Below are positions 16,198 through 38,604 of a stretch of DNA of 64,000 nt, piece after piece. Location: NCBI GenBank assembly GCA_024644345.1, contig JAHELE010000003.1, positions 1,288-65,287 of the forward strand, read 5' to 3'. Each line of letters begins with the position of its first letter. Position 1 is the stretch's first letter. The translations under genes and the position numbers were made by a program. Under the pieces are notes generated by a model. That model had not been told where the DNA came from. It made no database searches and was given only the letters and a program-made list of their open reading frames with translations. The stretch is from Actinomycetes bacterium (GTDB taxonomy: Bacteria; Actinomycetota; Actinomycetes; JAHEKZ01).

Positions 16198-16294
16198 GAC
16201 CCCCTCGCGGTGGCTGGCTTGGCGTACGGGACACTGGACGACACGCGAAAGCGACCCTAAGCCACCGCCCGAGCCACCTTACGAAGGGACCGTC

Positions 16295-16774
16295 GTGGAG
16301 TTCGACGTCTTCATCGAGATCCCGCAAGGACACCGCAACAAGTACGAGCTCGACAAGGAGTCCGGCCGGATCCGCCTGGACCGGATGCTCTTCACCTCGA
16401 CGCGGTACCCGTCCGACTACGGATTTATCGAGAACACGCTCGGCCTCGATGGTGACCCGCTCGACGCCCTTGTCCTGCTTGACGAGCCGACCTTCCCCGG
16501 CTGCGTGATCCTCTGCCGCGCCATCGGGATGTTCCGGATGACCGATGAAGCCGGGGGCGACGACAAGGTGATCTGCGTCCCGGCGCACGACCCGCGCAAG
16601 GAGCACCTCCGCGATATCCATCACATGCCCGAGTTCGACCGACTCGAGATCCAGCACTTCTTTGAGGTCTACAAAGACCTCGAACCTGGCAAGTCGGTGG
16701 AGGGCGCCACCTGGGAGGGTCGCGACGCGACCGAGCGAGAGATCCAGGCGTCCTTCAAGCGCTACGTCCCGTAG
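16295..16774 (+). CDS. ppa: Inorganic pyrophosphatase (family I)
   Basis: '[18 protein letters not shown]', '[21 protein letters not shown]'. A GTG start is preceded by a GAAGGGA RBS. The 401-aa ORF 15569..16774 is an over-extension. Confidence 0.9.
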
Positions 16775-16907
16775 GTCGCCGCAACGGACATGCCTTCGTC
16801 CACAGCGGATGTGGATGAAGCTGGGGATGCGCTGGGGACACACGCGGCAGGTGGTGTGGACGGCTCTGTGGATGAGAAAACCCGTTCAGATTCTTTGGGA
16901 AAACCCC

Positions 16908-16938
16908 TTGCGCAGCTTGGTCGGGTGAGCGTACAAAT
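16908..16938 (+). promoter_or_regulatory. Putative sigma-A-like promoter (TTGCGC-N18-TACAAA) in AT-richer stretch downstream of ppa
   Basis: The only AT-rich island in a 370-bp gap. The hexamers resemble TTGACA/TATAAT with 18-19 bp spacing. Would drive the transcript described in the findings. Confidence 0.35.
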
Positions 16939-17138
16939 CTCACACGACGCCGCGAGGCGCACCCGATCCAAAGGGCAACTAGCGGATCAGTTCGACGGGG
17001 CAACCTGCCGAACACGTTGGCGGGCAACCGCTGGCCGAGCCAGATCGTTGGGGCAACCCAGACGAGCTGCTCAGGGGTGCGGATTGGCGACATCGGGCTC
17101 GGCCTCGGTCGGGTCGTCGGCCCTCGGGCTGACAGCAG

Positions 17139-17171
17139 AAGGCCCCTCCAATGCCTAGTTGGAGGGGCCTT
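17139..17171. terminator. Perfect 13-bp stem / 7-nt loop hairpin (AAGGCCCCTCCAA-tgcctag-TTGGAGGGGCCTT), bidirectional intrinsic terminator between convergent genes
   Basis: Exact inverted repeat read directly, followed by the T-rich 'tctgtgtctgtgtcc' on the + side. Confidence 0.65.
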
Positions 17172-17269
17172 TCTGTGTCTGTGTCCATTGTGGGCAGGGC
17201 AGCGCTGAAACCGGTGGAACGACACGGTCGGCATCGCCCAGGACATGCCGACCAGGCGCCGCGGAAGCG

Positions 17270-18637
17270 CTAGCCCGCCCGGCGCATCAGGTCGTCGATC
17301 GACCGACCGAGGATGGCGAACTTCTCCGTGTAGCAGACTCCAGAGTTGAAGCACGGCTTTCCGTCCGAGTCTGCCTGCGAAGCGTCGCTGTACCGGTATC
17401 CGAGGTTCGTGAATGCCGCCACGATGTACTGGCGCCCGTCCTGCCCGGACAGCGCCTTCACAATCCCCGCATCGGACCCGTAGTTCTCGGTGAGCCCGGT
17501 CTTGTGCAGGAACGTGACCTCTGCTGTGTCGTTGCACGGCCGGACATCGAAGCCATAGGGGATTCCGTGCACGGTGACCGTGCCGTCGGTTGGGTCGATC
17601 CAGCGGTTGGGCACCTTGGCCGGCATCCCTTGGACGGGATAGTCGGCGCCGCACCAGTTGGGGGTGGAGAGCACCTCGTTGAACCCCTGTTGACTCAGCA
17701 AGCCCCGCAGCCACTCCTGGTATCGAGGTGCAAGAGCGCGATCAGCTATTACCTTGCGGCCCTCATCGGTCTTCCAGGCAACGCCATCGAGGCCGTTGAC
17801 CAGGAGCAGCAGGCGGGCCGTGTCGATTGCCGTCATGCTGATTTGCCCCGGGTTCCAGGTGCCACCGGCTCCAGCGTCGGTGCCCTTCACCTGCAGGGTC
17901 GCAAGCCCAAGCGATGCGAAGCGCTGGTTCATCTTCTTCATCTGGTTGAGACTATGGAGCTGCTGCAGCAGCGCACATGTCGACGTGTTGCTGGAGTACG
18001 TGATCATCTTCTCGAGCATCTGCGTCGTGGTGTTGGTGAACTCCTTGGTGTTTCCAAGGCAGGTCTTACCGTTTCGCTGCTTGTAGACGTAGTCGCGGTT
18101 GGGCTTGATCTTCCCCCGCTCGATCAACCGCAGCGTGTGGTAGGCGACGAGCAACTTAAAGGTGGACGCCGGGTAGGGAACCATGAACGGGTCTCCGCCC
18201 GCAGTACCTGGCACAAGGCGCGAACCCTTGGGCCAGGGGGCATTCCAGTCACCGTCCCAACGCGAGAGGTCCCACGCCCGCCAGTCGACTCCAACCGGTG
18301 CCAGGCCCTCGTCAAGGGTGACCACCTTGCCATCGGGGTAGTCGCGGCTGAACAGCACATTGGCGGTAGCGACCGGAGCACCCACCTCGTCCAGCTCGAT
18401 GACGGCCACGTCCAGGTTGGGCTGGTTCGCCACCTGAGGCGCCGGACCCTTCTTGGTGTCGTACTCGAAGTCGACGACCTCGTCGAACGCAGCATCCTGC
18501 ACCGCCGTGAGCAGACGCGCTGCCAACTCGTCGTCAGGAGAGACGTAGGCCGAGACATTAGTCGGGGCCAGCGTGGCCGCCACTATGGCCAGCGTTCCGG
18601 CCCCAGCCGCAGCTCGGAGGATGGACAAACGACGCAT
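17270..18637 (-). CDS. Class A beta-lactamase-like serine hydrolase (secreted) with ~150-aa N-terminal extension
   Basis: Signal peptide MRRLSILRAAAGAGTLAIVAATLAP, SxxK 'ASTFKLL', SxN 'YSSNTS', KTG 'LHKTGLTE'. Lower GC than flanking DNA. Confidence 0.7.
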   Translation of the reverse strand: MRRLSILRAAAGAGTLAIVAATLAPTNVSAYVSPDDELAARLLTAVQDAAFDEVVDFEYDTKKGPAPQVANQPNLDVAVIELDEVGAPVATANVLFSRDYPDGKVVTLDEGLAPVGVDWRAWDLSRWDGDWNAPWPKGSRLVPGTAGGDPFMVPYPASTFKLLVAYHTLRLIERGKIKPNRDYVYKQRNGKTCLGNTKEFTNTTTQMLEKMITYSSNTSTCALLQQLHSLNQMKKMNQRFASLGLATLQVKGTDAGAGGTWNPGQISMTAIDTARLLLLVNGLDGVAWKTDEGRKVIADRALAPRYQEWLRGLLSQQGFNEVLSTPNWCGADYPVQGMPAKVPNRWIDPTDGTVTVHGIPYGFDVRPCNDTAEVTFLHKTGLTENYGSDAGIVKALSGQDGRQYIVAAFTNLGYRYSDASQADSDGKPCFNSGVCYTEKFAILGRSIDDLMRRAG

Positions 18638-18685
18638 GGAAGCTCCTTGCCAGGTCAGGTTGTGCCGGTCACTGTAGGCGATCAC

Positions 18686-19111
18686 TCAGTCACGTACGAG
18701 GAAGGCGCACGACTCTACGAACTCCTCGATCTCCAGCCGCCACTCGTAGCGGCCAGGGGGCAGCGGCATCGAGCCGAAGCTGACAACGAGGGGGGCATCG
18801 AGCGGAGTGCCCTCCGGAAGTCCGGCCGGCCTCCCCACCTCCAGCTGACCCGACACCTCCACCGGCAACTCGTCAGACGTCGTCACGGCTCGCCCATCGG
18901 CGTCGACCAGCGCCAACCGCCAGTCGTGCCCCACATTCGTGCGGTCCCACGGCACCTCGATCTTGATCGCGACAGCCATCGGAGCCGTTGGCGTACCTGT
19001 AGTCGACCAGCCGCCGCCGAGGACATAGAGCTTTCCGCCCACCTGCTGGGCGGCGTCGGCCAGCATCATCGTGATCTTCACAGTGGCCATTCTGCCCCGA
19101 AGAGAGGTCAC
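18686..19111 (-). CDS. Hypothetical protein (141 aa), co-operonic between HMT-family gene and beta-lactamase-like gene
   Basis: ORF with GC3-rich codon usage and no recognisable motif. Confidence 0.4.
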   Translation of the reverse strand: MTSLRGRMATVKITMMLADAAQQVGGKLYVLGGGWSTTGTPTAPMAVAIKIEVPWDRTNVGHDWRLALVDADGRAVTTSDELPVEVSGQLEVGRPAGLPEGTPLDAPLVVSFGSMPLPPGRYEWRLEIEEFVESCAFLVRD

Positions 19112-24939: not shown

Positions 24940-25021
24940 GTGGCACAGAGTAGGGGTGGCCAGACGAAGGCTTGTGCGTCGACATGCCTAGAGATCTGGC
25001 TAGGATCCGATCGGATGAGAG

Positions 25022-38528: not shown

Positions 38529-38604
38529 TGGAGCCGCCTATCGGAGTCGAACCGATGACCTACGCATTACGAGTGCGTCGCTCTACCAACTGAGCTAAGG
38601 CGGC
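38529..38604 (-). tRNA. tRNA-Thr (anticodon CGT), CCA encoded
   Basis: The reverse complement folds as a cloverleaf GCCGCCT/AGGCGGC acceptor, GCTC-AGTTGGTA-GAGC D-arm, ACGCA-CTCGTAA-TGCGT anticodon arm, ATCGG-TTCGACT-CCGAT T-arm, and CCA. Confidence 0.85.

Follow-up and report, generated by a model that had tools for sequence, protein, structure and literature searches.

We describe a conserved, strand-specific and hyper-stable RNA structure, flanked by promoter-like and terminator-like sequences, in the gap downstream of an actinomycete ppa gene. The gap lies in a 64-kb stretch of contig JAHELE010000003.1 (assembly GCA_024644345.1; hereafter the window), between ppa, which encodes an inorganic pyrophosphatase (Pfam Pyrophosphatase; 16295-16774, plus strand), and a convergent Beta-lactamase2-family gene on the minus strand (17270-18685). 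We propose, with a probability of roughly 0.6, that a new small non-coding RNA, hyper-structured and restricted to its lineage, is encoded in the gap along with the DNA that regulates it. The broader statement, that a new structured small RNA (sRNA) gene of some kind lies here, ranges from equally probable to strongly favored, according to the weight given to predicted transcription, and makes the RNA a candidate member of a previously undescribed family of bacterial structured sRNAs. An original prediction, made on this stretch of DNA alone, had proposed an independent sRNA that acts as a sponge through four repeated, single-stranded GGGCAAC motifs. The first half of that proposal appears sound, in that covariation, an excess of G-U pairs, a promoter signature and the lack of a conserved open reading frame (ORF) all point to a structured non-coding RNA of about 235 nt on the plus strand; the sponge does not survive the comparison with orthologs.

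The element is conserved downstream of ppa in ten loci

The gap, estimated at almost 500 bp in the original prediction, measures 495 nt, and the predicted RNA occupies 16944-17178 on the plus strand, with ends placed by conservation (about 235 nt here, 236-303 nt in orthologs). A scan with the ppa protein, using one genome per GTDB species, yielded 80 loci, among which a homologous intergenic region was present only in the closest, L001 (ppa 92% identical). Single-sequence and profile nhmmer searches and a covariance model of the element (R1) found nothing in the 79 others, which include Streptomyces, Nocardioides and Actinomadura; a weak match in L013 (E = 0.13) falls inside a coding region and was discarded. 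Further orthologs came from other routes. L082 came to light when metagenome contigs were scanned for exact matches to the invariant 5' block of the RNA (two more candidates from that scan, L081 and L083, proved to be chance or coding matches), L084 and the partial loci L088 and L090 were found on contigs that encode close relatives of ppa, and L091, L092, L093 and L096 were reached through a far more divergent neighboring S13 peptidase (83-51% protein identity). Together with the window this makes ten loci, eight of them complete, and in all ten the element lies directly downstream of ppa and on the same strand. Model R1 scores the window at 129 bits and the orthologs at 108-154 bits.

Beyond these ppa-linked orthologs, the model recognizes no further copy, either elsewhere in the 64-kb window or among the remaining fetched loci. 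The sole match among plasmids was 38 nt long and due to chance, and nothing matched among phages and viral contigs. In four relatives with a ppa 89-92% identical to that of the window (L085, L086, L087 and L089), the next gene abuts ppa, leaving neither a gap nor an RNA element, and the element has been lost or gained within the clade. The RNA is most likely confined to a narrow group of uncultured soil actinomycetes.

Compensatory changes support an RNA fold on the plus strand

The stems of the predicted structure covary across the ten orthologous loci. In six sequences aligned by MAFFT without regard to structure, 15 of the 37 pairs change on both sides, a count reached by 0 of 500 shuffles, and only 1-4 pairs do so in controls in which the partners were slid by 1-3 columns. 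The ten-sequence model alignment, which leans towards structure and is for that reason given alongside the MAFFT result, has 17 of 37 pairs (40 cells) changing on both sides as against 2-5 pairs in the slid controls, and 92.5% of its cells are paired versus 25-42% when slid. Identity to the window over the RNA region is 0.58-0.83, about that of ppa third codon positions (0.66-0.83), which argues that selection has acted on shape rather than on sequence.

Folding strength and strand bias agree with this. The plus-strand fold of 16940-17185 has a minimum free energy (MFE) of -136.6 kcal/mol (z = -6.66), with z-scores of -9.12 and -10.98 for orthologs, whereas the minus-strand fold is weaker (z = -4.2). 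We assign the RNA to the plus strand because G-U cells outnumber A-C cells (22 versus 5) and because the GNRA and YNCG loops described below make sense only on that strand.

The gap could in principle encode a small protein instead, either the 122-aa ORF at 16790-17158 or a shorter one, and an open frame is indeed present in the window. The original prediction had called this ORF the only one in the gap; it exists as described, together with further mechanical ORFs that cross the gap on the minus strand. Ortholog pairs differ by 5-10 frameshifting insertions or deletions each, with lengths that are not multiples of three, and no single reading frame stays open throughout all orthologs. An AUG in the terminal loop is missing from L084, and the ORF that it would start has 13 codons in L001. 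The frameshifts rule out a conserved small protein, and we see practically no chance of a coding explanation.

Four GNRA-tipped hairpins on a junction are followed by a chain of hairpins

MFE folds run independently on all eight full-length RNAs give one and the same order of elements, with apical loops that read, from the 5' end, four GNRA tetraloops, two to five YNCG tetraloops and a final GCCUA. The RNA opens with a near-invariant segment, (C/U)ACGACGCCG-NNN-GGCGCACCC (16943-16964, plus strand), in which at most three positions vary among the ten loci. Two pairings are predicted for this segment. In one it folds locally into a hairpin, CGCC-[GNRA]-GGCG (16948-16959), whose loop reads GCGA, GCAA or GUGA except in one locus, which has GCAC; in the other it supplies the 5' side of a helix, P1, that closes the structure over a long range. 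RNAalifold predicts the local hairpin with six sequences and P1 with eight, and the invariance of the 5' strand favors neither. The 3' strand of P1 (17075-17095, plus strand) would pair with 16945-16964 and so enclose hairpins H1 to H4 as a five-way junction; this closure appears in the independent MFE folds of 8/8 full-length RNAs, with weak covariation, since its 3' strand varies opposite an invariant 5' strand. We note in passing that the 5' hairpin sequence GCCGCGAGGC (16950-16959) reads GCCGCAAGGC in L001, L082, L088 and L096, a form that may resemble helix 27 of actinobacterial 16S rRNA, the hairpin with the GCAA '900' tetraloop.

All four hairpins of the junction lie on the plus strand and carry one GGGCAAC each. 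H1 (16965-16988) consists of an outer stem, a purine-rich internal loop and a GG-[GCAA]-CU tip, and pairs of its outer stem covary, one of them occurring as AU in five loci, GC in four and GU in one. H2 (16990-17013) has the stem GUUCG/CGAAC in the window and ACCCG/CGGGU in L001, with a GCAA tip that becomes GAAA in L084 and L090 and GUAA in L093. H3 (17016-17035) is an 8-bp stem in which five of the eight pairs change on both sides (helix 6 of the model), and its GCAA tip is replaced by GUAA, GAGA or GAAA in orthologs. H4 (17037-17072) is a long interrupted stem; all seven pairs of its middle helix (helix 8) change on both sides, and its tip is GCAA in all nine loci that reach it. Downstream of the junction, two abutting CUCG-capped hairpins are predicted on the plus strand (17096-17115 and 17116-17133). 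The number of such YNCG-capped hairpins ranges from two to five among orthologs (two in the window, three in L091, four in L093 and five in L084), with CUCG, UUCG, UCCG and CACG as tips. Linkers between elements are 0-2 nt long, and about 75% of the nucleotides are in firm pairs. Just one single-stranded run of at least 5 nt is predicted in all eight full-length RNAs, namely GCCUA in the loop of the terminal hairpin. Tetraloop hairpins are not a general habit of this genome, as far as the 64-kb window goes: such a cluster is unique within it.

The GGGCAAC motifs are closed tetraloops rather than single-stranded sites

The four GGGCAAC copies on which the original prediction was built are present on the plus strand at 16973, 16998, 17022 and 17051, spaced 25, 24 and 29 nt apart; copies 2-4 read GGGCAACC (repeat family D3). 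The heptamer occurs 20 times on both strands of the 64-kb window, against 9.5 expected. From the remaining 16 copies about 0.01 would be expected per 85-nt stretch of one strand, so that four in the gap far exceed chance.

In every fold, the plus-strand fold of 16940-17185 included, each GGGCAAC(C) adopts the form GG-[GCAA]-CC, a GNRA tetraloop closing a hairpin, and the probability of being unpaired never yields a run of 5 nt or more at these positions. The same positions carry GCAA, GAAA, GUAA or GAGA tips in orthologs, and the flanking bases change as well; it is the shape of the hairpin that is conserved, and not the heptamer. Conservation of the repeats in orthologous gaps holds for GNRA-tipped hairpins with covarying stems and fails for the heptamer sequence. 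A sponge with four single-stranded GGGCAAC sites that titrates an mRNA or a sequence-specific RNA-binding protein accounts for four exact, regularly spaced copies in the window, but with these sites paired and looped in every fold and altered from one ortholog to the next, we consider it very unlikely. The RNA may still be a decoy or scaffold that a protein recognizes by the shape of its hairpins.

A terminator-like hairpin carries the only accessible loop

The last element of the RNA is a terminator-like hairpin (17135-17176, plus strand) with a perfect core at 17139-17171 and the invariant loop sequence GCCUA at 17153-17157. The 13-bp perfect stem and 7-nt loop of the original prediction are present (17139-17151 paired with 17159-17171), while the T-rich run said to follow them is weak, with about four T in eight positions. 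The stem is GC-rich and extends to about 18 bp, as expected of the stem-loop of an intrinsic terminator. Its core GGCCCCUCC...GGAGGGGCC is invariant, and compensatory changes occur at the top pair (A-U to C-G) and at the base pair (A-U to G-C). The tail that follows reads UUUCUGUGUCUG in the window and CUCGUACGU in L082. We infer that the RNA ends at this hairpin, near 17178, and the hairpin could also stop transcription of the convergent gene. The last conserved element is a CGACAC block (17220-17225) about 45 nt past the hairpin, which is invariant in eight orthologs amid sequence that varies; the RNA may in truth end here, or the block may be another binding site.

The GCCUA loop bears on a further explanation, namely that the RNA is a base-pairing sRNA with one of two invariant sequences as its seed: the GCCUA(G) terminal loop, through kissing or loop-target contacts, or the 5' segment. 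GCCUA is the sole accessible run of at least 5 nt and is the same in 8/8 RNAs, and the 22 nt at the 5' end are near-invariant even though their proposed pairing partner varies. The high proportion of firmly paired nucleotides and the lack of any longer single-stranded stretch speak against such a mode of action. Sequences complementary to the loop are no commoner in the window than expected, a search for conserved targets of the loop found none, and the lone candidate interaction, 7 nt between CACGACG at the 5' end of the RNA and CGUCGUG in the start region of ppa, is not conserved in L001 or L088. We think a base-pairing role rather unlikely. As a separate observation, ATGCCTAGAG at 24985-24992, intergenic and upstream of an ornithine-carbamoyltransferase-like gene, is a same-sense copy of the terminal-loop sequence; nothing else in the window comes as close to the loop, and the likeness is probably due to chance.

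A promoter-like pair and a phased repeat array precede the RNA

The hexamers named in the original prediction, TTGCGC (16908-16913) and TACAAA (16932-16937) separated by 18 nt, can be read directly in the window, and comparison refines them. A -35-like CTTGCG (16907-16912, plus strand) is invariant in 10/10 loci, and the -10-like TACAAA (16932-16937, plus strand) takes the form TA(C/G)AA(A/C) in orthologs, with T, A, A and A invariant at positions 1, 2, 4 and 5. The spacer from CTTGCG to TA(C/G)AA is exactly 18 nt long in all ten loci, within the 16-18 nt expected of a sigma-70 (SigA-type) promoter, while its sequence varies, and the -10-like element ends 5-6 nt before the invariant 5' block of the RNA. 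On this comparative signature we place the start at about 16944 and infer that the RNA has a promoter of its own. The region was also said to be the only AT-rich island; its GC content is indeed low (0.55 at 16850-16949), and 17950-18099 is as low (0.53-0.56).

Further upstream lies an array (16796-16875) composed of an inverted TCGTCCACA at 16796-16804 and five direct TG(T/G)GGA(T/C) repeats that start at 16810, 16822, 16833, 16855 and 16867, that is, with spacings of 12, 11, 22 and 12 nt. The repeat cores are invariant in all ten loci, and within the window the paired-repeat pattern is found only at the array (2 matches versus 0.16 expected). Between the array and the -35-like element are a AGATTCTT block (16888-16895 in the upstream alignment), slightly changed in most loci and divergent in L092 (AGAAAGTT), and then an A-rich stretch. 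We regard the array as a putative regulator-binding region, either DnaA-box-like or response-regulator-like. It resembles the reverse complement of the actinobacterial DnaA box (TTGTCCACA), and TCGTCCACA is common among the arrays of orthologs. In a DnaA-box cluster one would look for more than one 9-mer with at most a single mismatch to TTGTCCACA (or TTATCCACA). In the window array only 16796-16804 is that close to TTGTCCACA; two further boxes (TCATCCACA) are within one mismatch of the E. coli form, as judged by eye. The phasing would suit a response regulator of the OmpR/PhoB type equally well, and none of the DnaA, OmpR/PhoB-type, CRP, MtrA and PhoP motifs appears to fit cleanly.

The array raises the question of whether the locus works mainly at the DNA level, as a group of DnaA boxes or of sites for a response regulator that might, for instance, titrate DnaA or have a regulatory role, the hairpins being incidental. 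The phased, invariant TG(T/G)GGAY repeats and their likeness to DnaA boxes would fit such a locus. The array, with its single box within one mismatch of the consensus, spans only 16796-16875, and the next 235 nt bear the marks of an RNA, with compensatory substitutions, G-U pairs in excess on one strand, and GNRA and YNCG loops that are specific to a strand. We therefore give very little credence to a function at the DNA level alone.

The element could be a 3'-end module of the ppa transcript

A more substantial rival holds that the element is a cis-acting module of the ppa 3' untranslated region (UTR), with no function in trans. It would block 3'-5' exonucleases and separate the convergent genes as an insulator or a terminator that works in both directions. 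Its constant position after ppa fits this well, as do the absence of a clear terminator of ppa's own, a terminal hairpin symmetric enough to act on both strands, hairpins that abut with linkers of 0-2 nt, and a number of YNCG hairpins that varies as would that of generic stabilizers. A passive 3' UTR has, however, no need for a conserved -35/-10-like pair with a fixed spacer 5-6 nt before an invariant start. Nor would it call for a 22-nt 5' segment and a GCCUA loop that are invariant in sequence while other stems drift, or for a multi-branch 5' domain more elaborate than a stabilizer requires, and close relatives do without the element altogether. We hold a purely cis-acting module to be a serious but improbable account of the locus.

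Several features of the neighborhood were recorded in addition. Upstream of ppa, at about 16255-16275, the window has a block GCGAAAGCGACCCTAAGCCAC that is wholly or partly common to L001, L088 and L090 and is probably the ppa promoter or leader. A gene for a DUF6941 protein recurs beyond the RNA (18686-19111 in the window, 1017-1421 in L092 and 927-1355 in L096); in L092 and L096 it is itself the convergent neighbor, and in the window the beta-lactamase-like gene comes first. In L093, 1.7 kb between the Beta-lactamase2 gene and ppa (201-1919) contain no called gene, and the RNA occupies only about 1460-1740 of this interval.

The RNA differs from known families

An Rfam search, suggested along with the original prediction as a way to check it, found no family that matches the window or its orthologs. 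With Rfam 15 at gathering thresholds, the only hit in the whole window was a tRNA (38532-38604, minus strand). At E values up to 10 the gap region gave chance matches of 15-20 bits against thresholds of 40-100, and orthologs L082, L088 and L090 gave no match at E up to 5.

By analogy, the RNA would work most like the Csr/Rsm sponges, as a modular chain of hairpins of variable number that could plausibly capture protein multivalently. It resembles CsrB, RsmY and RsmZ in its length (100-350 nt in that group), in being built of similar hairpins, more in some species than in others, and in its terminator end; those RNAs are independent transcripts, as is predicted for this one. The Csr/Rsm RNAs expose GGA in loops or single strands for CsrA or RsmA, whereas the tips here are closed GNRA and YNCG tetraloops with no conserved GGA. 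No exposed GGA (ANGGA) of the CsrB/RsmZ kind was found, the apical loops all being GNRA, YNCG or GCCUA, and Actinobacteria are not known to have CsrA.

The RNA also recalls 6S and its actinobacterial counterpart Ms1, both of which bind RNA polymerase, structured RNAs of 180-300 nt of the stable and abundant type with their own promoter (a predicted one here), and Ms1 is likewise poorly conserved in sequence and found through synteny. The 6S and Ms1 RNAs are long, largely double-stranded rods whose central bubble resembles an open promoter, in contrast to a five-way junction of four hairpins followed by tandem hairpins. Ms1 adjoins genes for a HAD-IB hydrolase (or 'inhibition of morphological differentiation' protein) and an oxidoreductase (PMC9130861). 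We rejected identity with Ms1 or 6S in view of the different shape, the different flanks (ppa and Beta-lactamase2 or DUF6941 genes) and the lack of a 6S match in Rfam.

Other comparisons are partial. Type I 3'-UTR sRNAs, such as MicL and DapZ in enterobacteria, are embedded in a 3' UTR and have their own promoter. Like them, the ppa-linked RNA directly follows a protein gene on the same strand, with a promoter-like element past the stop codon and a terminator that may be shared. They act through single-stranded seeds and Hfq, whereas this RNA is almost devoid of single-stranded sequence. REP and BIME elements are stable hairpins that likewise lie between convergent genes and could block exonucleases and end transcription. 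They are short, multi-copy and conserved in sequence, unlike this element of about 235 nt with its multi-branch domain and conservation by covariation, and because it is single-copy in the window and the fetched loci, we do not regard it as a REP-type repeat. The phage boxB hairpins bound by N proteins show that a protein can recognize a GNRA-fold tip by its shape, and four GNRA tips in a row would work like a boxB tethering array. A boxB is a single cis-acting hairpin of the nut sites with a 5-nt loop, and neither an N-like protein nor a phage context was found here. Two further classes were set aside. A riboswitch or other cis leader would need a same-strand gene directly downstream, where there is a convergent gene in the window, L091, L092, L093 and L096 and a different gene in L001 and L084. 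The antitoxin RNA of a type III toxin-antitoxin system would have near-identical tandem repeats and a same-strand toxin gene after them, whereas the hairpins here differ from one another (83% identity over 18 nt for the best pair) and, again, no downstream gene lies on the same strand.

Discussion

Several observations weigh against an independent sRNA gene. The RNA and both of its ends are predicted from sequence. Its invariable position after ppa on the same strand means that it could be made partly or wholly as the ppa 3' UTR. The sixth position of the -10-like element is A or C and not T, which departs from TANNNT, and a generic scan for the sigma-70 consensus called no promoter in the gap. 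The missing final T may account for that result, and the deviation suggests that an activator is needed or that another sigma factor is used. A generic terminator scan, which demands five T in eight positions, likewise called none in the gap, where the U-tract is weak; whether actinobacterial terminators need a U-tract is debated. The identity of the GNRA loops varies freely, which fits thermodynamic capping as well as recognition by a protein. With L082 and L096 nearly identical, only about seven of the full-length sequences are independent. Finally, the close relatives L085, L086, L087 and L089, which have no such element, indicate that it is dispensable.

Nearly all nucleotides of the RNA are paired and every tip is an extra-stable tetraloop, which suggests to us a molecule built to persist and to be recognized by its shape. 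Single-stranded sequence is nearly absent from it, and what is conserved in its repeated units is their shape; the function we therefore favor, tentatively and as a model, is that of a long-lived decoy or scaffold that binds a protein through the GNRA-tipped hairpins. Transcription would run from the CTTGCG-N18-TA(C/G)AA promoter, starting at about 16944 and ending near 17178, and this promoter may need help from a factor that binds the phased TG(T/G)GGAY array. With four GNRA-tipped hairpins that are nearly equivalent and spaced about 24-29 nt from one another, the RNA would offer a protein several binding sites, as befits a decoy or scaffold, while the variable set of YNCG hairpins and the terminal hairpin would shield the 3' end from exonucleases.

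In a bolder form of this proposal, which we put forward as speculation with little expectation that it holds in full, the RNA would represent a new class of shape-recognized decoy or scaffold RNA in bacteria without CsrA, Hfq or ProQ. The GNRA hairpins on the junction would capture a protein multivalently, the YNCG chain would give the RNA its longevity, and DnaA or a response regulator on the array would switch its synthesis. If this were true, a decoy RNA switched in this way would tie the status of replication or of the envelope to RNA-based protein sequestration.

Few structured regulatory RNAs have been characterized in Actinobacteria, which are not known to have the usual sRNA chaperones. 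The value of the present example is limited by its restriction to a narrow clade of uncultured soil organisms, in which some close relatives lack the RNA. Nevertheless, a candidate RNA family that is supported by covariation and has no match in Rfam is a concrete target for study, and its features, namely an extra-stable tetraloop on every hairpin, scarcely any single-stranded sequence, and a conserved promoter-like signal with phased, putative protein-binding repeats, make it worth the effort. Such work could reveal how regulation by the shape of an RNA, instead of by base-pairing, operates in such bacteria.

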